DNA from: an uncultured Nitrospira sp.
GTDB taxonomy: Bacteria; Nitrospirota; Nitrospiria; Nitrospirales; Nitrospiraceae
Assembly (NCBI GenBank): GCA_964478915.1
Contig: CAYZKG010000004.1
Location: 1 to 42,326 of the forward strand
Direction: 5' to 3'
DNA: 42,326 bases
A model generated the notes under the pieces. That model saw only the letters and a list, made by a program, of their open reading frames with translations, searched no databases and was not told the DNA's origin. The translations under genes and the position numbers were made by a program. Positions 531 through 40,657 of the stretch are shown piece by piece. Numbering within the stretch: the first letter of the stretch is position 1; every line of letters begins with the position of its first letter.

Positions 531-617
531 ATGGCGATGGGCTATAGGCTATGGGCAATGGAGCCGAATTGCTTCTTTCGTCTGCCTATCGCCTATGGCC
601 CATAGTCTATTGCCTAT
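531..617. repeat. Heptanucleotide-periodic inverted repeat (imperfect hairpin) between the cysN stop and the mrp start
   Basis: Left arm: ATGGCGA TGGGCTA TAGGCTA TGGGCAA TGGAGCC (531-565). Right arm: TGCCTAT CGCCTAT GGCCCAT AGTCTAT TGCCTAT (583-617). The arms are largely complementary. It shares the 16-mer GGCGATGGGCTATAGG (533-548) with 37766-37781. Confidence 0.75.
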
Positions 618-674
618 TTTGTAGGCAGAACGTAGCACAGCGTTTTGGGGCCGGTCAAACCGACCTCTGGCGCT

Positions 675-2531: not shown

Positions 2532-3329
2532 CTACATGTACCCGTCTTTGCGGAGCAGCTCCATTCCGCGTCCTTCGTCCTGCGCGCGCCCTGCCCGCTC
2601 GGCGACGGTGGTTTGCCGCAGCTCCTCGATGATATCGTCCACGGTCTTTGCGGTGGACCGGATCGGGAAGGTGCACGGGGCGCATCCGAGGCTCCGGTAC
2701 CGCGTGCCGTCTCCCCGGTCCAGGTACAGATCCATGAACGGGATGCCCTCGAGCTTGATGTACTCCCAGATGTTGATCTCGGTCCAGTCCAGCAACGGAT
2801 GGATGCGAATATGCGTGCCGGCCGGGAAAGCCGTCTTGAACTGGTCCCACAGTTCAGGCGGCTGGTCCCGGAAATCCCATTCGTTGTTCTTGTCGCGGGG
2901 CGAGAAGTACCGTTCCTTCGCGCGCGTTCCTTCCTCGTCGGCCCTGACCCCGAGGATGATCCCGGTATAGCCTTTTTCATCCAGCACCTGCTTCATGGCG
3001 TTGGTCTTCAGCGCGGTGCAGCAGACGGTGCGGCCGAGGGTATGGTTCATGCCGTTGGCGAGCGCCTCCTTGTTCTGGCCGATCACCAGATTCAGCCGCC
3101 ATTCCCGGGCGAGCCGATCGCGGTATTCGATCATGGCCGGAATCTTGTAACTCGTGTCGATGTGGATCAGTGGAAACGGCACGTGGCCGAGGAAGGCCTT
3201 GCGGGCGAGCCAGAGCAGGACGGTCGAGTCCTTCCCCATGGACCACAGCATGGCGAGGTGATCGAAATGCTTGTAGGCCTCGCGAAGGATATAGATGCTC
3301 TGGTCTTCGAGCTGCCGGAGATGCTTCAT
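2532..3329 (-). CDS. cysD: Sulfate adenylyltransferase subunit 2 (CysD)
   Basis: Translation reads [22 protein letters not shown]...[19 protein letters not shown]...[10 protein letters not shown]...[18 protein letters not shown], with the PP-loop SxGKDS. I chose the internal ATG at comp 3327-3329, which forms an ATGA overlap with the upstream stop. The track ORF extends to 3491 through Gly/Pro-rich non-homologous sequence. Confidence 0.92.
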
Positions 3330-4375: not shown

Positions 4376-4380
4376 TTCCT

Positions 4381-4415
4381 CCTCACCCCTCACGCCTTAC
4401 GCCTCACGCCTTACG
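4381..4415. repeat. One-armed heptanucleotide array, (CGTRAGG)5 in mRNA sense, between the dsrE-like and trpD2-like genes
   Basis: Plus strand: CCTCACC CCTCACG CCTTACG CCTCACG CCTTACG. On the transcribed minus strand this reads CGTAAGG CGTGAGG CGTAAGG CGTGAGG GGTGAGG and runs directly into GAGGAAATG. Confidence 0.8.
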
Positions 4416-4420
4416 ATGAA

Positions 4421-4834: not shown

Positions 4835-4850
4835 GGTCAGTCTCCCAACT

Positions 4851-4914
4851 GTGATAGTGATGCGTCATGCCTAACAGGTATCTGTGATGAACTCATCACG
4901 CATCACGCTTCACG
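4851..4914. repeat. Heptanucleotide-periodic imperfect hairpin between cysH and the dsrE-like gene; it overlaps the cysH stop
   Basis: GTGATAG TGATGCG TCATG ... CTCATCA CGCATCA CGCTTCA CG. 4857-4869 (GTGATGCGTCATG) pairs with 4894-4906 (CATCACGCATCAC) at 12 of 13 positions. The sense-strand unit is CGTGATG. Confidence 0.7.
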
Positions 4915-13083: not shown

Positions 13084-13088
13084 CACGA

Positions 13089-13123
13089 CGTGAGGCGTGA
13101 GGCGTGAAGCGTTAGACGCAAGG
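13089..13123. repeat. One-armed heptanucleotide array (CGTGAGG-type) in the rpmI-rplT spacer, in mRNA sense
   Basis: CGTGAGG CGTGAGG CGTGAAG CGTTAGA CGCAAGG, followed by AGAGCCA and then ATG (13131). Confidence 0.8.
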
Positions 13124-13130
13124 AGAGCCA

Positions 13131-13496
13131 ATGTCTCGAGTCAAAGGCGGTCCGAAGACGCGGCAACGAAGGAAGAAGCGGCTCAAGCTCGCGAAGGGCC
13201 AGTACGGGGCCAAGAGCCGGCTGTTTCGCACCGCGACTGAGTCGGTGGACAAGGGCCAGACCTACGCCTACGCCCATCGGCGAAAGCGAAAGAGGGATTT
13301 CCGTCAATTGTGGATTACCCGTATCAGTGCAGCCGCCCGTCTGCACGACCTGACCTACAGCCGGTTTATGGCTGCGCTGCGGAAGGCCAACGTTCTGCTG
13401 GACCGGAAGGTACTCTCCGAGATGGCGATCAAGGATCCGTCAGGGTTCGAGAAGCTCGTGCAGGTCGCCAAGCAGGCGGCTCCCGCCACCCTGTAA
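13131..13496 (+). CDS. rplT: 50S ribosomal protein L20
   Basis: 121 aa. MSRVKGGPKTRQRRKKRLKLAKGQYGAKSRLFRTA...RDFRQLWITRISAAAR. Confidence 0.95.
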   Translation: MSRVKGGPKTRQRRKKRLKLAKGQYGAKSRLFRTATESVDKGQTYAYAHRRKRKRDFRQLWITRISAAARLHDLTYSRFMAALRKANVLLDRKVLSEMAIKDPSGFEKLVQVAKQAAPATL

Positions 13497-13582
13497 CTCG
13501 TCATTCGTCATTGGTCATTCGTCAATGGTCTTGCTTCGGAATTCCGTTACGATTGACCAGTGACAAATGACGATTGACATCT
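13497..13582. repeat. Heptanucleotide-periodic inverted repeat that exactly fills the gap between the convergent rplT and pheT stops
   Basis: Left arm: CTCGTCA TTCGTCA TTGGTCA TTCGTCA ATGGTCT (13497-13531). Right arm: ACGATTG ACCAGTG ACAAATG ACGATTG ACATCTT (13549-13583). The arms are about 80% complementary by eye. Confidence 0.75.
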
Positions 13583-15286
13583 TCAAGCCAGCAGCTCCGC
13601 GACTGCATTGACTTCCAGCTCGAAGACCACGGTGGGCATGCCGACCTGCCACTGCTCCAGCACCTCCGGGTGGAGTTCGCCGATCAGGCCGATAGATCGG
13701 CCCTGAGACGTGATCCAACCGCTCCGGCCTTCCAGAAAGGACGGGTGGCAGTTAGGCTCGAGCGAGTAGGGCAGATTGAGGTAGAACAGCAGCAGATCGA
13801 GGCACGAGTGGACTTCGGAGAAGTTGGCCGTCGCGTGTGCGATCAAGGCGCCGAGGATCATCATGGTGCGCGAGCCGAACTCTTCTCCCGGGTCGGGCAC
13901 CGCCACTTCGCCGACCTCGAACAGTCGATGGGGGTAGAACGCCCGCGTCGAAGCCGATTCGACTCGGAGCAGCGAGGGTGTCATCCATTGGCGGAGGCAC
14001 GAATGGTTCTGGGACATCACATTGTCGATCTCGACCACCTGATCCATGTCACTGCCGGCCAGCCGCATCCGCTCGACGAGCTCCTGGCGCGAGGTGATCA
14101 CGTTGGAGATTACCTCCTGAAACCCGATCCCGACCATCAGCTCGCGCACGCGGTCAGAGACCTGTTCCAGGCGGGACAAGCCGCCCACCGTGAACTGGGA
14201 CGGCATCATCAGCTCGAACCTGTCATAACCGAGGCTGATGGCCACGTCCTCGACGACGTCCACGTCATGCATCATGTCGTTTCGGTAAGGCGGAAGCTTC
14301 ACGGAGATCCCGTCGCGAGACAGTTTGGCTTGGTAGCCGTAAGCCAGTAGCGCGTCTCGCACCTGGCCGGCCGGCAGGGGCTGCCCCAGTGCGCTCTGGA
14401 CCGCCGTGAGCGGCAGCGATCGGGTCCTCCCAAGATCGTGCGGAGTTCGAACCCGTTTCCCGATTTCCGTGGCCTGGGGATAGAAGATCTCCACCGGCTC
14501 GATCGCGGCACCGCGATCCGCCAGGTTCACGGCCAGGATGTTCAGGGCCAACAGCACCATCCGCAGATCGGTGCCGGTCACCTCCACCAACAGCTCCTTG
14601 TCCCCCACCTGGACCTCGCCGATATCCCGGCTGTTGATGATCGGTGGAAACGAGAGCACACGGCCGTGGGCATCGCGCAGCAACGGCACGCCGGGCTTTC
14701 CGTCCAGAATGGAGCCGTACTCGATTCCTTTGGGGTGCACGGCTAAAATTTCCCGCAATGTGATCTCTTCTTCGAAGCCCAAGGGGGTGAAGCGAACCTC
14801 GTCAGGATTCACCAGGGCATAGGTGACCGGAAAGGCGATCCGCTGGAGGCGGTAGAGCCCGATGGATACGGAACGGCGCTTACGCCCGAAGATATCGGCC
14901 AACTTCTCTTGCGTCTGAATCAACTGGATCAGGCCTTCGTCCGTGACCGAGCAGCCGACAGCGGCGCAGGCGGCCACATATGGCCGAACCTGCTCCAGGC
15001 CCGGCTCCACCACGAGGCGGCGCTTCGGCCGCAGCGCGGGCTTGAAGCAGGCGTATGCGGGTGCGGATCCGGCGAGCTTGATGCGAATCTGGCGGGCGAT
15101 TCCCTCGCAACACCAGAGATCAGGACGGTTGCTGTCCCGCACTTCGATCCGCAGCTCGCCGGTGGCCGGATTGTGATCCTTCAGCTCCCCTTTCACTATA
15201 GGAAGCCAGGACTCCACCTCGTTCGCGTCCATGGGACGGCCCACGAGGTGCTCCAGGTCTGCGCAGCTCACGGAAATGGTGGGCAT
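13583..15286 (-). CDS. pheT: Phenylalanyl-tRNA synthetase beta subunit, archaeal/eukaryal type
   Basis: 567 aa, against roughly 800 aa for the bacterial type. The N-terminus MPTISVSCADLEHLVGRPMD...IEVRDSNRPDLWCCEGIARQIR matches the archaeal PheT pattern. The B3/4 and B5 regions follow. It lacks the bacterial N-terminal OB domain and C-terminal B8 domain. Confidence 0.88.
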   Translation of the reverse strand: MPTISVSCADLEHLVGRPMDANEVESWLPIVKGELKDHNPATGELRIEVRDSNRPDLWCCEGIARQIRIKLAGSAPAYACFKPALRPKRRLVVEPGLEQVRPYVAACAAVGCSVTDEGLIQLIQTQEKLADIFGRKRRSVSIGLYRLQRIAFPVTYALVNPDEVRFTPLGFEEEITLREILAVHPKGIEYGSILDGKPGVPLLRDAHGRVLSFPPIINSRDIGEVQVGDKELLVEVTGTDLRMVLLALNILAVNLADRGAAIEPVEIFYPQATEIGKRVRTPHDLGRTRSLPLTAVQSALGQPLPAGQVRDALLAYGYQAKLSRDGISVKLPPYRNDMMHDVDVVEDVAISLGYDRFELMMPSQFTVGGLSRLEQVSDRVRELMVGIGFQEVISNVITSRQELVERMRLAGSDMDQVVEIDNVMSQNHSCLRQWMTPSLLRVESASTRAFYPHRLFEVGEVAVPDPGEEFGSRTMMILGALIAHATANFSEVHSCLDLLLFYLNLPYSLEPNCHPSFLEGRSGWITSQGRSIGLIGELHPEVLEQWQVGMPTVVFELEVNAVAELLA

Positions 15287-25688: not shown

Positions 25689-25795
25689 ACCCGTTGCTCC
25701 GGGAGATGCAACGGGTACCCGGCCAGGGATTACATAGGCCTGTCTGATGGGTTAGCGAGTATGGGGGGCACCCATTGCAGCACGGAGCAATGGGT
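25689..25795. repeat. Two REP-like palindromic elements (ACCCRTTGC-loop-GCAAYGGGT) between the convergent HEAT-repeat gene and gpmA
   Basis: 25689-25716: ACCCGTTGC tccgggagat GCAACGGGT. 25770-25795: ACCCATTGC agcacgga GCAATGGGT. Both are flanked by GGGC on the left and by (A)CCCGG on the right. Confidence 0.7.
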
Positions 25796-29488: not shown

Positions 29489-30439
29489 ATGTCTGCCAAA
29501 CCCATCCGGAAGGACTTGCTCACGGTCGGAGCGATTCCCCGCGCCGAGGTCGCCCACCTCTTGCGCCTGGCAGCCGACTTGAAGCGCGCCCGGCGGCGGG
29601 CAGTCTTCACGCGGCGGCTGGCCGGCATGACACTGGGCCTCGTGTTCGAGAAGCCGTCCACCCGGACCCGGGTGTCGTTCGAAGCGGCGATGAACCAACT
29701 GGGCGGGCAATCCCTCTTTCTCTCAGCCACCGACATCCAGATGTGCCGCGGGGAGAGCATCGCCGACACCGCTCAGGTGCTGTCCCGGTATCTGGATGGG
29801 CTGGTGATCCGGACCTACGATCAGGCCACCGTCGAGGAATGGGCGCGCCGGGCGACGATCCCGGTGATCAACGGCTTGACCGACCTGTGCCATCCCTGCC
29901 AGGCTCTGTCGGACCTGCTGACCATCCGGGAAAAGAAAGGCAGCTTGAAGGGTGTTCGTCTGGCCTACGTCGGAGACGGCAACAATGTGGCCAACTCCTT
30001 GATCGAGGGTGCCGCCAAGATGGGCATGATCATGAGCCTGGCCTGCCCGAGCGGCTACGAGCCCGATCAGCGGATCGTGGACCTCGCCCGCGTGGAAGCC
30101 GAGCGCACCGGCGCGGACGTCACGATCACCGATGACCCCCAGATCGCCGTGAAGGACGCCGACGTGGTGTACACCGATGTCTGGATCAGCATGGGGCGAG
30201 AGAGGGAGCAGGCCCGCCGCCTGAAGGCGCTCGCGCCGTACCAGGTGAACGAGCGCTTGCTGAAGATGGCCCGGCCCGCGGCGATCGTCATGCACTGCCT
30301 GCCGGCGCACCGGGGCCAGGAAATCACGGCGGGGGTCTTGGACGGGCCGCAGTCGGTGGTGCTGGACCAGGCTGAGAATCGGTTGCACATGCAGAAGGCC
30401 ATTCTCCTGGAATTGCTCCAAGGCAAAAGGAAAAAGTAA
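29489..30439 (+). CDS. argF: Ornithine carbamoyltransferase
   Basis: 316 aa with the STRTR, HPCQ, DVW.SMG and HCLPA motifs. Confidence 0.93.
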   Translation: MSAKPIRKDLLTVGAIPRAEVAHLLRLAADLKRARRRAVFTRRLAGMTLGLVFEKPSTRTRVSFEAAMNQLGGQSLFLSATDIQMCRGESIADTAQVLSRYLDGLVIRTYDQATVEEWARRATIPVINGLTDLCHPCQALSDLLTIREKKGSLKGVRLAYVGDGNNVANSLIEGAAKMGMIMSLACPSGYEPDQRIVDLARVEAERTGADVTITDDPQIAVKDADVVYTDVWISMGREREQARRLKALAPYQVNERLLKMARPAAIVMHCLPAHRGQEITAGVLDGPQSVVLDQAENRLHMQKAILLELLQGKRKK

Positions 30440-30452
30440 AAGGTAAAACCGG

Positions 30453-36602: not shown

Positions 36603-36716
36603 ACCCATTGCATTCGGAAGAGCAATGGGTTCCCGGGCGGCAGCCTTCGGGAAATTCCTTCTGCTGCGGTCCGGGTACCCGTTGCCGCAACGCGGGTACC
36701 CGTTACTGCAACGGGT
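36603..36716. repeat. Cluster of three REP-like palindromic elements, including a 21-nt tandem duplication, in the lysA-dapF spacer
   Basis: 36603-36630: ACCCATTGC attcggaaga GCAATGGGT. 36673-36692 and 36694-36713: GGGTACCCGTTGCCGCAACG / GGGTACCCGTTACTGCAACG, with a period of 21 nt. The second copy folds as ACCCGTT-actgc-AACGGGT (36698-36716). Confidence 0.7.
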
Positions 36717-36851: not shown

Positions 36852-37748
36852 GTGAGTAAGAGAGAGAAGGCGATTCCGTTCATGAAGCTGTCCGGAAGCG
36901 GGAACGATTTCATCCTGATCGACAACCGCCGCTGGGTGGTCGACCCCAGACGGGCCGGCGCGCTCGCGGCCAAGGTCTGCCCGCACCGGATGTCCGTGGG
37001 AGGCGACGGTCTGATCCTGATCGAGCGATCGCGCCGGGCCGATTTCCGGTGGCGGCTGTTCAACGCCGACGGGAGCGAAGCGGAATTCAGCGGCAACGGC
37101 GCCCGGTGCGCGGCGCGGTTCGCCTATCTGAAGCGGATCGCCCCGAGACGGATGCGCTTCGAGACGCTGGCCGGGATCGTCGAGGCCGAACTGGTCGCCA
37201 ATCGCTCTGGTCAGCGAGGCCGACGGATCGCCGGACGAGCTCTTACCGGGGTCAAAGTCCGGTTTCCTGATCCCTCTGGACTGCGGCTGCATCTCAAGGT
37301 GTCGATTGAGCAACCCTCGGATGAGCGCAAGGTCTGCGAAGCCCATTTCCTCGACACCGGCGTTCCCCACTGCGTCTATTTCGTGGACGACCCTGAGCGC
37401 GTGGACGTGGTGGGCATCGGGCGGCCGACCAGGTATCACCCCTTGTTTGAGCCCGCCGGGGCGAACGTCAATTTCATCAAGGTGCTGGATCCGCATCGGA
37501 TCCGCATCAGGACGTACGAGCGCGGAGTCGAGGATGAGACGCTGGCCTGCGGCACCGGTGCGATCGCGGCTGCCTTGATCGCCAGCCTCATCGCCAAGGT
37601 CGAGTCCCCGGTTACGTTGCTTCCGCAAAGCGGGCTCGAGCTTGCGGTCCATTTCACATCGCGTGGAGAGTCCTTTACCGATGTGTATCTGGAAGGCGAT
37701 GCCCGCGCGGTGTATGAAGGGCGCATCCTGCCGGATGCGTGGATGTGA
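36852..37748 (+). CDS. dapF: Diaminopimelate epimerase
   Basis: IPFMKLSGSGNDFILIDN...FNADGSEAEFSGNGARC...ERGVEDETLACGTGA, with both catalytic Cys contexts. The GTG start at 36852 follows AGAGGAG at ~6 nt. An alternative ATG lies at 36882. Confidence 0.9.
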   Translation: MSKREKAIPFMKLSGSGNDFILIDNRRWVVDPRRAGALAAKVCPHRMSVGGDGLILIERSRRADFRWRLFNADGSEAEFSGNGARCAARFAYLKRIAPRRMRFETLAGIVEAELVANRSGQRGRRIAGRALTGVKVRFPDPSGLRLHLKVSIEQPSDERKVCEAHFLDTGVPHCVYFVDDPERVDVVGIGRPTRYHPLFEPAGANVNFIKVLDPHRIRIRTYERGVEDETLACGTGAIAAALIASLIAKVESPVTLLPQSGLELAVHFTSRGESFTDVYLEGDARAVYEGRILPDAWM

Positions 37749-37750
37749 AC

Positions 37751-37838
37751 AGGCAAGAGGCTAGAGGCGATGGGCTATAGGGAACGCGCTGGCCGGCTTC
37801 CGACCCATAAGCCTCTAGCCCCGCGCCTCTCGCCCAAG
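37751..37838. repeat. Heptanucleotide-periodic inverted repeat in the dapF-dapA spacer
   Basis: Left arm: AGGCAAG AGGCTAG AGGCGAT GGGCTAT AGGGAAC (37751-37785). Right arm: CCCATAA GCCTCTA GCCCCGC GCCTCTC GCCCAAG (37804-37838). It shares a 16-mer with 533-548. Confidence 0.75.
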
Positions 37839-37846
37839 GAGTGGAT

Positions 37847-38719
37847 ATGTTTAGCGGCTCGCTCGTTGCCATCGTCACGCCGTTCCGGAACGGACGGGTG
37901 GATGAACGCGCGCTCGGTGACCTGATCGAGTTTCAGATCGCGAACGGCACGCACGGCATCGTGCCCTGCGGCACGACCGGTGAATCCGCGACGCTGTCTC
38001 ACGAAGAGCATGAGCGCGTCGTGGCCTTTACGGTGGAGGCGGTCAAGCGAAGAGCGTCGGTGATCGCGGGGACGGGCTCGAACTCCACGGATGAGGCGAT
38101 TGCCCTCACCCGCCATGCCAAGAAGGCCGGAGCCGACGGCGCGTTGTTGATCACGCCGTATTACAACAAGCCCATGCAGGAAGGGCTGTTCCGCCATTAC
38201 AAGGCAGTGGCCGAGGCGGTGGATCTCCCACTGGTCCTGTACAACATCCCGGGACGCACCAGCGTCAACATGGCGCCCTCCACCGTGGCGAGGCTTGCGG
38301 CGCTCCGGAATATCGTGGCGATCAAGGAGGGGAGCGGCTCGCTCACGCAGGTCTCGGAGATCATCCAGAGCTGCGGCGATCGGATCACGGTCCTGTCCGG
38401 AGACGACGCGCTCACGCTGCCGATGATGGCCCTGGGCGCGAAGGGCGTGATTACGGTCATGGCCAACATCGCGCCGGCCGACATGGCCGCCATGGTGAAT
38501 GCATTCGCGGCGGGCCGGCTTGCCGAGGCTCGCCGGCTCCACTACAAAATGGCCCCGCTCTTCGCCGCCCTCTTCCTGGAGACCAATCCCATTCCGGTGA
38601 AAGAGGCTCTGGCGATGATGGGCAAGATCGACGGCGAGCTGCGGCTTCCGCTCAGCCCGATGGCTGCGGACAGTCGTGAGAAGTTGGCTCAGGCCTTAAA
38701 GGAATACGGCCTCATCTAG
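37847..38719 (+). CDS. dapA: 4-hydroxy-tetrahydrodipicolinate synthase
   Basis: MFSGSLVAIVTPF...GIVPCGTTGES.TLS..EH...ITPYYNKP...LYNIPGRT. ATG 37847 lies 5 nt after AAGGAG. The track start is the GTG at 37841. Confidence 0.93.
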   Translation: MFSGSLVAIVTPFRNGRVDERALGDLIEFQIANGTHGIVPCGTTGESATLSHEEHERVVAFTVEAVKRRASVIAGTGSNSTDEAIALTRHAKKAGADGALLITPYYNKPMQEGLFRHYKAVAEAVDLPLVLYNIPGRTSVNMAPSTVARLAALRNIVAIKEGSGSLTQVSEIIQSCGDRITVLSGDDALTLPMMALGAKGVITVMANIAPADMAAMVNAFAAGRLAEARRLHYKMAPLFAALFLETNPIPVKEALAMMGKIDGELRLPLSPMAADSREKLAQALKEYGLI

Positions 38720-38789
38720 CAGTGAGGAGTGAACAGTGAGGAGTTAGGTGATCGTCTCCTCACTCTTCACTCCTTACTCCTCACTGGAG
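38720..38789. repeat. Ten consecutive heptads forming a perfectly phased inverted repeat in the dapA-dapB spacer
   Basis: CAGTGAG GAGTGAA CAGTGAG GAGTTAG GTGATCG | TCTCCTC ACTCTTC ACTCCTT ACTCCTC ACTGGAG. The dyad falls between 38754 and 38755. The 3'-most heptad supplies the GGAG 5 nt before the dapB ATG. Confidence 0.85.
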
Positions 38790-38794
38790 TCACC

Positions 38795-39598
38795 ATGATT
38801 AAGGTGATCGTGACAGGTGCAGCCGGCCGCATGGGCGGACGGGTGGTCGCCCTTCTGAAAGAGTCAGCGGCTCTGACGCTGGTTGGAGCGGTGGAGAGCA
38901 AAGGGCACGTGTCTGTCGGCGAGGATGCGGGCGACATGGCGGGTTGCGGGCGCACCGGCGTTCTGATCGTGGATGACCTGTCGGCGGTCATGGAGCGCGG
39001 CGAAGTGGTCATTGATTTTTCCGTTCCCGACGCCACGGTGACCTATGCCCGGCTCTCCGCTCAGCACCGGCGCGCCATGGTGATCGGCACCACCGGTCTC
39101 TCGCCGCAGGAAGTGGCCGAGCTGCGGACACTGGCGCGGTCCTTCCCCTGTGTCTTTTCCCCGAACATGAGCGTCGGGGTCAACGTCATCTTCAAGGTCA
39201 TCACCCAGATGGCGAAGGCGTTTGGAGAGGAGTACGACCTGGAAGTGATCGAGGCGCATCACCGTTTGAAGAAGGACGCACCGAGCGGCACGGCGTTGAA
39301 GATGGCCGAGCTCCTGGCCCGCGCGCTGAACCGGAGCCTGGATCAAGTCGGGATCTATGCCCGAAAGGGTCTCATCGGCGAGCGGCCTCGAGGACAGATC
39401 GGCATCCAGACGATCCGGGCCGGCGACATCGTCGGAGACCACACCGTCCTGTTCGGCGGAATGGGCGAGCGCGTGGAGGTGACCCACCGCGTGCAAAGCC
39501 GCGACACCTTTGCGCGTGGGGCGTTGCGCGCCGCACGGTGGGTGGTCCGGCAGCCGCCCGGCCTGTACGATATGCAGGATGTCCTGGAATTAAAATAG
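38795..39598 (+). CDS. dapB: 4-hydroxy-tetrahydrodipicolinate reductase
   Basis: MIKVIVTGAAGRMGGRVV...VIDFS.P......GTTG...SPNMSVGVN...EAHHR.K.DAPSGTA. The track ORF starts 22 codons upstream, inside the repeat. Confidence 0.93.
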   Translation: MIKVIVTGAAGRMGGRVVALLKESAALTLVGAVESKGHVSVGEDAGDMAGCGRTGVLIVDDLSAVMERGEVVIDFSVPDATVTYARLSAQHRRAMVIGTTGLSPQEVAELRTLARSFPCVFSPNMSVGVNVIFKVITQMAKAFGEEYDLEVIEAHHRLKKDAPSGTALKMAELLARALNRSLDQVGIYARKGLIGERPRGQIGIQTIRAGDIVGDHTVLFGGMGERVEVTHRVQSRDTFARGALRAARWVVRQPPGLYDMQDVLELK

Positions 39599-39604
39599 GG
39601 CCGG

Positions 39605-39652
39605 CCTCTTCAGCCTCTCAGCCTCAGCTCACTCAGCACTCACAACTCAACC
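39605..39652. repeat. One-armed, less regular CTCAGC/ACTCANC short-period array between the convergent dapB and ADH stops
   Basis: CCTCTTCAGCCTCTCAGCCTCAGCTC is followed by clean heptads ACTCAGC ACTCACA ACTCAAC (39631-39651). Confidence 0.55.
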
Positions 39653-39655
39653 CTG

Positions 39656-40657
39656 CTAGTTGACCAGCAGGACGCCCGCGCCCTGAATCGCGCCTGCTTT
39701 CAGGGCCTTCAGGGCGGTGTTGGCTTCTTCGAGCGGAAAGCGTCGGGTGTGTGACCGGACGGGAACGGCTGCGGCTTCGCTCAGGAAATCCACGCCGTCC
39801 TGCTTGGTGTTGGCTGTCACGCTGCGTATGATGCGCTCTCCGAACAGCTCGCGGTCGTAATCGAGCTGGGGAATCGGTGTCAGGTGGATGCCGGCGATAG
39901 CCAGTGTGCCCCCCCGCTCTAGCGCGCGAAGGGCAGGCGGGACCAGCTCGCCGGCCGGCGCGAACATGATCGCGGCATGGAGCTTGTCGGGCGGGGCTTC
40001 GGCCGCTTCGCCGACCCAGACCGCGCCCAGGTCCTTGGCCAAGCGCCGATGCTCCTCCCGCAGGGAGCAGACGTACACCGTGCACCCCCAGCGGCGGGCG
40101 ATCTGGATGGTGATGTGAGCCGAGGCCCCAAAGCCGTACAGGCCAAGGCGCTGTCCATACCGGATGCCGCTGAGGCGCAGCGCTCGAAAGCCAATGATGC
40201 CGGCGCAGAGCAGGGGCGCGGCCTCTTCATCGCTGAAGGTGTCGGGGAGGGGGTAGGCGAACGACTCGGGCACGACTGCATACTCCGCGTAGCCGCCGTC
40301 CACATGGTAGCCGGTGAAGATGGGCTGGACGCAGAGGTTCTCCCGTCCGCTGAGGCAAAAGTCGCAGCGGCCGCAGGTCTGCTGAAGCCAGGCAATCCCC
40401 ACCCGATCGCCTTCTTTCATCGTTCGGACCCCAGGCCCGACTTTGTCCACCGTGCCGACCACCTCGTGGCCCGGCACCACCGGCAGCTTTCCCCGTGGGA
40501 GGTCCCCCTCCACGATATGAAGATCGGTCCGGCAGACCCCACACACCCGCACCCGCACCCGCACCTGCCCCGATCCGGGCTCGGGGACAGGCACCTCTTC
40601 CAGCGCCAATGGATGGCGAGTCGCGTCGCCGGGCTGCCGAAGCACCATCGCTCTCAT
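39656..40657 (-). CDS. Zinc-dependent alcohol dehydrogenase family oxidoreductase
   Basis: MRAMVLRQ...CGVCRTDLHIVEGD...PGHEVVG...structural-zinc CGRCDFCLSGRENLC...GLYGFGASAH. The start is taken at the Met preceded by GGAGAG (7 nt). The track start is 5 codons upstream at 40672. Confidence 0.85.
   Translation of the reverse strand: MRAMVLRQPGDATRHPLALEEVPVPEPGSGQVRVRVRVCGVCRTDLHIVEGDLPRGKLPVVPGHEVVGTVDKVGPGVRTMKEGDRVGIAWLQQTCGRCDFCLSGRENLCVQPIFTGYHVDGGYAEYAVVPESFAYPLPDTFSDEEAAPLLCAGIIGFRALRLSGIRYGQRLGLYGFGASAHITIQIARRWGCTVYVCSLREEHRRLAKDLGAVWVGEAAEAPPDKLHAAIMFAPAGELVPPALRALERGGTLAIAGIHLTPIPQLDYDRELFGERIIRSVTANTKQDGVDFLSEAAAVPVRSHTRRFPLEEANTALKALKAGAIQGAGVLLVN

Follow-up and report, generated by a model that had tools for sequence, protein, structure and literature searches.

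Heptanucleotide arrays in the operon spacers of an uncultured Nitrospiraceae bacterium, possible relatives of the PF05635 cassette

Arrays of 7-nucleotide units occupy gene junctions in a 42,326-nt stretch of DNA from an uncultured Nitrospiraceae bacterium (contig CAYZKG010000004.1, hereafter "the window"), which we examined together with a 10-kb extension beyond it (52 kb in all). These are heptanucleotide arrays of the type known as short tandemly repeated repetitive sequences (STRRs) or long simple sequence repeats (SSRs); they are mostly inverted pairs in which a G-rich arm precedes a C-rich one, they are restricted to transcribed junctions and they are polymorphic through slippage. In related sequences, arms made of such heptads appear as the regular boundaries of genes of the PF05635 family in seven phyla, including at the dapF-dapA junction. 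We propose, with moderate confidence, that the window arrays are slippage-prone hairpin insertions devoid of an open reading frame (ORF), similar to rRNA intervening sequences (IVSs), tolerated in transcribed spacers and related to the PF05635 cassette.

The window DNA has 63% G+C, and the closest relatives of its DapA protein belong to uncultured Nitrospirae/Nitrospiraceae, with a top identity of 87-88% in two large collections. Tandem Repeats Finder (TRF) reported eight period-7 sites (533-561, 584-617, 4381-4415, 4894-4914, 13089-13112, 13498-13524, 30420-30448 and 38756-38785; 3.0-5.0 copies, 74-94% matches), as well as period-14 super-units, perfect or nearly so, at 4388-4415 and 13500-13530. 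In a lag scan of the window, strong segments numbered six at lag 7, two at lag 14 and one at lag 6, with no other lag between 3 and 15 yielding any; a looser scan of the window and its extension gave 14 arms at lag 7 vs 0-1 at lags 4, 5, 8, 10, 11 and 13. Intergenic DNA holds 14 of the 15 arms in the 52 kb. A comparison with shuffled sequence had been set beforehand as the test of the period-7 signal. Run on the window, it gave a lag-7 self-identity of 0.314 over 3378 nt of intergenic DNA vs 0.261±0.009 in dinucleotide shuffles (z 6.1), with z 4.1 at lag 14 and z 4.0 at lag 21; coding DNA has period 3 only, which agrees with the earlier statement that the arrays are non-coding. Lag-7 identity per spacer reaches 0.41-0.70 at 523-674, 4394-4420, 4835-4909, 13084-13130, 13497-13582, 37749-37846 and 38720-38795, and is at background (0.22-0.29) in every spacer longer than 190 nt. 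Good sigma-70-like matches are confined to these long spacers. The promoter-type spacers, which amount to 2.2 kb or ~65% of the intergenic DNA, are free of arrays, as expected from the claim that arrays lie only inside operons or at convergent junctions. In the window genome and its close relatives, spacers with elements are co-directional in 31 cases, convergent in 3 and divergent in at most 1 (probably a gene-calling error), against 107, 29 and 44 background spacers in the same set.

All the properties of heptanucleotide tandem repeats (STRR or long SSR class) were found, namely a head-to-tail 7-nt unit, at least three copies, a non-coding position and copy change by whole units. At least four unrelated unit families without a shared core coexist in the 52 kb; heptads resemble each other within a locus and differ between loci, as had been described. 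The units are contiguous and have no spacers between them, so that CRISPR arrays, with repeats of 24-48 nt and unique spacers, were correctly set aside.

The original prediction had also described inverted arms. The ten heptads that it quoted for the dapA-dapB junction (38720-38789) are present as written, and the same architecture recurs at 531-617, 4851-4914, 13497-13582 and 37751-37838, so that the window contains five inverted pairs (Table 1). As RNA, all five are predicted to fold into long imperfect hairpins of -27.7 to -42.9 kcal/mol, with z-scores of -7.3 (13494-13585), -5.3 (38717-38798) and -1.5 to -2.7 for the remaining two-armed elements. Other parts of the description need trimming. 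The period is not strictly 7 nt (39605-39652, for instance, is irregular with units of 6-9 nt), the dapA-dapB stem has 28 predicted pairs in four blocks instead of about 35 bp, and "phased" carries no independent meaning for a palindrome. The arrays said to lie at eight clear junctions are real, but amount to seven clear and two weak ones. Among the one-armed arrays, 4381-4415 and 13089-13123 stand, while 39605-39652 (lag-7 identity 0.38) is doubtful; the A-rich run given as 30425-30452 is weak indeed and lies, at 30420-30448, mostly inside the last codons of argF.

Arrays begin 0-6 nt past the upstream stop codon and finish just ahead of the next ribosome-binding site, and they take up the majority of the longer gaps that separate co-transcribed genes in this genome. 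No fold is predicted for the one-armed arrays, and the loops of the two-armed elements are 7-50 nt long. Both arms of an element are built from one unit family without being exact mirror images of each other; their complementarity is 0.6-0.8 at several offsets spaced by 7 nt but drops to 0.2-0.3 when out of phase, so that a stem has more than one possible pairing register and can absorb the gain or loss of units. Three double changes were seen in orthologous dapF-dapA hairpins, yet we do not take them as compensatory evolution, because in the register test any unit pairs with any unit. We compared 20 distinct two-armed elements from several phyla: 16 have a G-rich 5' arm and a C-rich 3' arm, 4 have balanced arms, and the reverse order was never seen. 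This G-then-C order reads alike on either strand. Because both strands of a palindrome show an identical order, the idea of a "purine-rich arm first relative to transcription" was rejected as framed, and the valid statement is an intrinsic G-then-C chirality. Another idea, that the upstream stop codon seeds the array, is true for cysH only. Very long pure arrays were observed elsewhere, namely (GGTTTCT)n over 235 nt in a metagenome-assembled genome (MAG) of Syntrophobacteraceae (locus L058, 520-755), (TTAGTGA)15 in Bernardetia (L218, ~340-450) and (TCACTGG)13 in Euhalothece (L221, 840-935), so arm length is not capped at ~5 units.

The possibility that the arrays are assembly artefacts was ruled out with same-strain assemblies found by exact-protein look-up (JGI 3300022563, 3300025157 and 3300009444; ENA ERZ27245685; Logan SRR5747861). 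Wherever these cover the arrays, in up to five independent assemblies, the arrays are identical and gap-free, with one exception. Contig k141_1324219 of ENA ERZ27245685, 99.6% identical to the window over 8.1 kb, does not contain window positions 4388-4401 (CCTCACGCCTTACG). The gap of 14 nt corresponds to two heptads, that is, one 14-nt super-unit of the array 4381-4415, and is direct evidence for whole-unit change. The same contig differs from the window by a cluster of substitutions in cysD (2679-2763), where 14 of the 15 substitutions are packed in 85 nt; this looks like a recombination patch, and contigs from four other assemblies begin beside it, at window positions 2684-2690.

Comparison of orthologous junctions in related genomes, which had been suggested earlier, revealed the same architecture with the same, other or no heptads. 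At the dapF-dapA junction, the unit is ATRGGCN in the window and in the relatives L001, L005 and L087 (the ortholog being near-identical in L001 and diverged in L005 and L087), CGTGAGG or CGTGAAG in L002 and L082, AGTGAGG in L003 and L081, AGTAAAA in L090, and none in L006 and L007. A similar spread of heptads is found at dapA-dapB, and units elsewhere at these two junctions of relatives include AGTTTTG and TGACGAG. Spacers at the dap junctions of L003, L006, L007 and L010 measure 0-22 nt; together with the varying heptads, this identifies the arrays as extra DNA in otherwise minimal spacers. Synteny is lost in the relatives at the junctions to the right of the window. Arrays are thus gained, lost and replaced quickly between relatives, with at least five unrelated unit families at one junction in a clade whose DapA proteins are 80-88% identical. 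The loci compared yielded 97 canonical units from 133 distinct arrays, so no single motif is being recognised. A calibrated detector put the density of arms per 100 kb at ~27 in this genome and ~15 in the close clade, against ~3 in the remaining Nitrospirales; Syntrophales and other outgroups had ~5, with the arms clustered in few loci. At control lags 5, 10, 11 and 13 the density was at most ~1 arm per 100 kb. Period-8 arrays are raised as well (12 in the close clade, 39 in outgroups, with lags 5, 10, 11 and 13 near zero), and the preference may hence be for 7-8 nt and not exactly 7.

The connection to a protein family came from the dapF-dapA junction of the relative L091, in which arms of (CAAAAGG)n and (CTTTTGC)n lie 400 nt apart and enclose a 139-aa ORF matching Pfam PF05635, "23S rRNA-intervening sequence protein", with 66 bits. 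The heptad arms are predicted to form the closing stem round the ORF (-182 kcal/mol vs -142±5.6 in shuffles, z -7.2). The nearest solved homologue is 2RLD, an entry with five chains, and the family has been described as sharing homology with the accessory protein Avd of diversity-generating retroelements (PMC10053308). Homologues of the L091 type were found in six further contexts (GH38/RtcB, two variants of ApbE/cytochrome, BKACE/CinA, an unnamed gene/AP endonuclease and ftsW/murG), all with (GCAAAAG)n...(CTTTTGC)n arms. A second PF05635 subfamily (L187, P0129, P0169) has GAGGCKTGAGG...CCTCACG/CCTCAAG arms; its unit is the window's own CGTGAGG/CCTCACG family, and the window units at 4381-4415 and 13089-13123 match the arms of L187, L238 and L242. 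Arm units vary between subfamilies and stay constant within a subfamily across seven contexts, and so the arms travel with the gene.

An automated test of 23 distinct PF05635 genes looked for period-7 arrays up to 200 nt away. It found them on both sides of 21 genes, and none of the 23 was without an array on at least one side, while control lags 5, 8, 10 and 11 gave 1 hit in 184 tests. Weaker arms are visible at the two genes that missed a two-sided call, and a 24th gene (L019), found blind with a broader profile afterwards, has arms too. These genes come from Nitrospirota, Acidobacteriota-like, Cyanobacteriota, Chloroflexota, Bacteroidota, Spirochaetota and Bacillota records; twelve copies are on plasmids (Nostoc, Dolichospermum, Planktothrix, Pseudanabaena, Gloeocapsa, Euhalothece, Chlorohelix, Bernardetia, Chondrinema, Treponema, Monoglobus). 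Detection was by profiles, and phmmer with a single IVS protein against the compared loci matched only that protein itself. ORF-less hairpins with the same units as an adjacent cassette occur in L202 and L220.

Further observations concern these cassettes. In L202 (2470-2800), the ORF-less same-unit hairpin past the cassette is followed by at least three tandem ~45-nt copies of a C-rich arm plus linker, which suggests local amplification of arms. Two Nitrospirales MAGs (L034 9600-10100 and L019 16360-16960) carry distant PF05635 copies, flanked by heptad arms, that interrupt at one and the same point what reads as a single methyltransferase-like coding region (...ESFWLIGQPDV / cassette / GFDYYNTKTG...), with arm units that differ between the copies; the L019 copy looks like a pseudogene. 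Either the host gene has been split, or a protein-coding gene here harbours an intervening sequence. On plasmids (L213, L214, L216, L219, L223, L212), PF05635 cassettes often lie amid defence-type operon genes, such as between helicase and N6-methylase or hsdS and hsdR genes, upstream of cas1 or before a Swt1-family HEPN protein. Finally, runs of at least three exact CGTGAGG copies were found in 19 viral or proviral contigs (IMG/VR loci L175-L193); some, as in L176 and L179, are hairpins of the form [GTGAGG]n...[CCTCAC]n, and one adjoins a PF05635 gene (L187).

From these similarities we infer that the window elements may be ORF-less relatives of the PF05635 cassette. The five two-armed elements are, like the cassette ends, inverted arrays of a single family with the G-rich arm at the 5' side. 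As no PF05635 ORF lies between the window arms, the claim is of an "ORF-less derivative or relative" and not of a "member". Such an element would sit in a transcribed spacer, where its arms would pair in the transcript as a long closing stem, in a manner that may resemble the rRNA intervening sequence excised by RNase III. The stem would join the upstream stop and the downstream start and would probably give a processing or stability site, so that the insertion would do little harm to the operon. Replication slippage would then expand, contract and homogenise the arms, and the G-rich 5' arm, often Shine-Dalgarno-like, may be the leader relic of a lost ORF.

Several points weigh against this interpretation. 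No PF05635 ORF was detected in the window or its 10-kb extension by hmmsearch with a profile of 252 family members, and the window loops show no recognisable remnant of a PF05635 gene. The ATRGGCN and TCGTCAT units have so far matched the arms of none of the PF05635 genes examined; the ATRGGCN elements are, moreover, always more stable as antisense. Overall, sense RNA has no folding advantage, 9 elements being more stable in sense and 11 in antisense. We accordingly see no strand-specific RNA signature and claim no RNA-specific selection; the sense-vs-antisense comparison, intended as a G·U test for selection at the RNA level, was dropped for want of a consistent sense advantage. One-armed arrays exist, and one Planktothrix cassette has its C-rich arm first. 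No target-site duplication, transposase or mobility mechanism was found, and the PF05635 sample is small and non-random.

In the main rival explanation, the arrays would be ordinary heptanucleotide microsatellites, born in situ by slippage wherever non-coding DNA lacks regulatory signals, with arms created by fold-back or template switching; PF05635 genes would merely insert there or make arrays locally, and the window arrays would be unrelated to them. We regard this as rather unlikely, even though it accommodates the whole-heptad indel between strains, the perfect 14-nt super-units, the very high unit diversity, and the lack of both a PF05635 gene in the 52 kb and a sense-strand RNA signature. 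It also agrees with the report, known to us as Mrazek 2007 is cited in PMC4679880 and PMC4692102, that heptamers are the commonest long SSR in many bacteria, with polymerase slippage as the suggested cause. Against it stand the array-free state of the promoter-type ~65% of the intergenic DNA, a 16-mer (GGCGATGGGCTATAGG) shared by three loci of one genome, the unrelated unit families at a single junction among such close relatives, and the 16:0 chirality, which it leaves unexplained. In addition, the co-travel of arms with a protein subfamily through seven contexts argues against insertion into pre-existing arrays.

Alternatively, the arrays may be cis-acting binding sites, at which a ring-shaped or multi-domain RNA- or DNA-binding protein would read ~4-5 heptads and control translation, processing or polarity, a pentameric PF05635 protein or a cold-shock-domain protein being the candidates. 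Arms typically have 4-5 units, 2RLD has five chains, the unit family follows the protein subfamily and arrays abut start codons. Moreover, in Nostoc the output of recO and recF reporters was altered by deletion of heptamer repeats (bioRxiv 10.1101/2022.06.06.494920), and CspB is cited in PMC4679880 as binding one protein per heptamer. We nevertheless consider such a role unlikely in view of the unrelated unit families without a common core, the absence of a nearby PF05635 gene and the relatives whose orthologous junctions do without arrays, which indicates that no essential regulation depends on them.

A function as intrinsic terminators or attenuators, or as "I-shaped" terminators without a U tract, that tune the distal genes of operons is very unlikely. 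The hairpins are strong, two elements lie between convergent genes, and the tract 39604-39652, read relative to dapB, is C-rich and unstructured, like a Rho loading site. However, the terminator scan listed none of the heptad hairpins (it did list a small separate stem at 39615-39599 on the - strand), no T run follows any of them, one-armed arrays do not fold and most elements separate genes of one pathway that need co-expression. The arm order, G-rich 5' and C-rich 3', speaks against terminators as well, many E. coli terminators showing the opposite arrangement. A related idea, that a C-rich arm placed first at operon ends serves as a Rho site, was abandoned, as it rested on just two convergent cases and a third, in L001, contradicts it. 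Searches of Rfam did not assign the arrays either: at gathering thresholds tRNA-Val alone passes and no family falls on the arrays, and at an E-value threshold 38709-38790 matches only hairpin models of microRNA precursors, below the gathering score.

Least probable of all are repetitive extragenic palindromic (REP) sequences, their REPIN hairpins or MITEs (transposable elements of the miniature inverted-repeat type), moved by a REP-associated tyrosine transposase (RAYT) or another transposase encoded elsewhere in the genome: the 70-110-nt extragenic hairpins in operon spacers and convergent junctions, their variable presence among relatives and the 16-mer at three loci would suit them, but there is no genome-wide consensus, units differ between loci, loops are unrelated, REP or MITE arms are not made of tandem heptads, and neither terminal inverted repeats or target-site duplications nor a transposase-like gene among the annotated genes of the 52 kb were seen. 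Similarly, one mobile element with a conserved interior was rejected as an explanation, since the three ATRGGCN elements have heptads alone in common and unrelated loops.

A broader and more speculative idea, which we put forward tentatively as a possibility, is that bacterial heptamer repeats in general (STRRs, those of Xanthomonas and Beggiatoaceae and the Nitrospiraceae hairpins) are arms or relics of one ancient, horizontally spreading cassette. Its cargo, an Avd-like pentameric four-helix bundle, would read ~5 of its own heptads, and the arms would form an excisable stem allowing life in transcribed spacers, rRNA helices and genes; movement through an RNA or a reverse-transcriptase route might be possible. 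Few uncharacterised small proteins of bacteria are as common as those of PF05635 ("four helix bundle"/23S-IVS). If it is true that heptamers and PF05635 belong together, both puzzles become testable and heptamer repeats acquire a concrete origin. IVS-like insertions would then not be limited to rRNA and could colonise biosynthetic operons (dap, cys, ribosomal-protein, ftsW-murG). For annotation, this would explain the inflated spacers in these MAGs, the frequent contig breaks nearby and the length-polymorphic arrays.

Table 1. Heptad arrays in the window, with the basis of detection and the units (TRF, Tandem Repeats Finder).
Feature	Position	Strand	Basis	Units and remarks
Two-armed, cysN-to-mrp/apbC spacer	531..618	-	TRF; lag-7 identity 0.45; fold -37.4 kcal/mol, z -2.65	Family ATRGGCN; arms on + strand: 533-561 GGCGATG GGCTATA GGCTATG GGCAATG; 584-618 GCCTATC GCCTATG GCCCATA GTCTATT GCCTATT; same sequence in 5 assemblies
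One-armed (4381-4415), DsrE-like/trpD-like spacer	4376..4420	-	TRF periods 7 and 14 (100% match); lag-7 identity 0.70	Takes up entire spacer; sense strand CGTAAGG CGTGAGG CGTAAGG CGTGAGG GGTGAGG, then GGAGG, ATG
Two-armed, cysH-to-DsrE-like spacer	4851..4914	-	TRF; fold -27.7 kcal/mol, z -2.7	Sense strand CGTGAAG CGTGATG CGTGATG ... CATGACG CATCACT ATCACAG; first TGA of array is the cysH stop codon (4910-4912)
One-armed, rpmI-to-rplT spacer	13089..13123	+	TRF 94% match; lag-7 identity 0.57; no fold	CGTGAGG CGTGAGG CGTGAAG CGTTAGA CGCAAGG, continuing into rplT ribosome-binding site
Two-armed, between convergent stops of rplT and archaeal-type pheT	13493..13578	.	TRF; lag identity; fold: + strand -39.7 kcal/mol, z -7.3; - strand -35.0 kcal/mol, z -5.6	Arms TCGTCAT TCGTCAT TGGTCAT TCGTCAA and GATTGAC CAGTGAC AAATGAC GATTGAC; STRR-like unit TTGGTCA at 13511-13517
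Weak A-rich array, end of argF plus 13-nt argF-argG spacer	30420..30448	+	TRF 82% match, 8% indels	AAGGCAA AAGGAAA AAGTAAA AGGTAAA; family AAAGKAA builds a two-armed element in relative L001 (8931-9018)
Two-armed, dapF-to-dapA spacer filled	37748..37835	+	Lag identity; fold -42.9 kcal/mol, z -1.5	Arms 37748-37781 (ACAGGCA AGAGGCT AGAGGCG ATGGGCT ATAGGGA) and 37804-37835; then AAGGAG, dapA ATG at 37847
Two-armed, dapA-to-dapB spacer filled	38718..38789	+	Fold -42.4 kcal/mol, 28 pairs in four blocks, z -5.3	5' arm AGTGAGG AGTGAAC AGTGAGG AGTTAGG; 3' arm CCTCACT CTTCACT CCTTACT CCTCACT; dapB ATG at 38796; same sequence in 4 assemblies
Irregular C-rich tract, convergent stops of dapB and adh; doubtful member	39604..39652	.	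TRF period 8; lag-7 identity 0.38; no predicted fold, z +0.7	GCCTCTTCA GCCTCTCA GCCTCA GCTCACTCA GCACTCA CAACTCA; units 6-9 nt; G-rich on adh sense strand

Other features of the window stand apart from the arrays. A dispersed palindromic motif, GCAACGGGTACCCGTTGC, which is not heptadic, occurs only in long promoter-type spacers, at 25708-25723, at 36670-36713 (with a 21-nt tandem pair at 36672-36713) and ~35 nt past the right end (L170, ~10788); these 3 matches with at most 2 mismatches compare with 0.03 expected, and the motif may represent either another small repeat or a binding site for a transcription factor. The beta subunit of phenylalanyl-tRNA synthetase (13583-15286, - strand) is of archaeal type, with 472 bits to TIGR00471 vs 120 bits to the bacterial model. 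A perfect hexamer repeat, (CACCCG)x3.7 at 40544-40565, lies in frame inside adh and is unrelated to the heptad family.

Heptamer repeats, described as early as 1990 and long puzzling, serve to fingerprint cyanobacteria. In heterocystous cyanobacteria (Calothrix/Nostoc), the STRR units are CCCCAGT, TTGGTCA and CAACAGT. The earlier choice of these as the nearest precedent, in a host that is not cyanobacterial, proved sound. The window arrays share with STRRs the tandem 7-nt non-coding units and the presence of several families per genome, and TTGGTCA indeed occurs verbatim at 13511-13517. They differ in their host, a member of the Nitrospirota with 63% G+C, and in being mostly short inverted pairs of 4-5 units in intra-operon spacers, whereas STRR arrays are usually described as direct. 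In the strict sense they fall outside the STRRs, given the Nitrospiraceae host and a single canonical unit that occurs once. The link to STRRs is nonetheless stronger than the original prediction could know, because PF05635 genes have heptamer arrays beside them in the same way on cyanobacterial plasmids and in Nitrospiraceae.

REP, BIME (bacterial interspersed mosaic element) and REPIN sequences of Proteobacteria are likewise extragenic imperfect palindromes in operon spacers and convergent junctions, absent from promoters and with a putative role as mRNA stabilisers. Unlike the window arrays, REPs have one conserved 20-40-nt consensus per genome, are not tandem 7-mers and depend on RAYT. The GGGAATC heptamers of Xanthomonas and the GGGGA(C/T)T heptamers of Nostoc are intergenic and lie within transcripts (Rehm et al. 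2015, PMC4692102). Their repeat type is kept while length varies between relatives, and the 70-75 convergent-orientation site pairs of GGGAATC per Xanthomonas genome have the G-rich-then-C-rich chirality of our elements (PMC4692102). In contrast, each of those genomes has one dominant unit prone to form G-quadruplexes (G4), while the 52 kb examined here has at least four families, with units mostly not G4-capable. Direct TAACTGA repeats of marine Beggiatoaceae, some cyanobacteria and some Bacteroidetes (MacGregor 2015, PMC4679880) also stand immediately upstream of start codons, carry a stop codon per unit and have a patchy distribution suggestive of horizontal gene transfer; they consist of a single unit, form no hairpins and are almost always direct (1 inverted case in 170 sets). 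In Geobacter metallireducens, elements built from 4-5 heptanucleotides in tandem (GGACCGG; MTYCTGA) occur in dozens of copies per genome and carry an annotation as putative sites of global regulation (PMC2700814), but with one consensus per family, with GGACCGG also inside genes and with no reported rule of inverted arms.

The rRNA IVSs with an S23p/PF05635 ORF (Coxiella, Leptospira; PMC4990558) are, like our elements, inserted into transcribed DNA and closed by a stem formed from their two ends, which for our elements is predicted. They hold the PF05635 ORF in the loop, show ORF decay and have tandem heptamers of varying copy number ahead of the ORF; in the Coxiella 23S IVS these are 2-3 strain-variable copies of GACAGAT, and RNase III makes its 5' cut at the first repeat (PMC4990558). 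The window elements differ in that they lie in mRNA operon spacers instead of rRNA helices and are ORF-less, and that RNase III may process them. This Coxiella study is the sole report of heptamers beside PF05635 that we found: the two main papers on heptamer repeats leave the protein family unmentioned, PMC4692102 notes no PF05635 link for GGGAATC, and a general link was not found in the searchable literature, so that "unreported" is provisional with subscription literature outside this scope. As a sequence class, the window arrays are a known kind in a new phylum.

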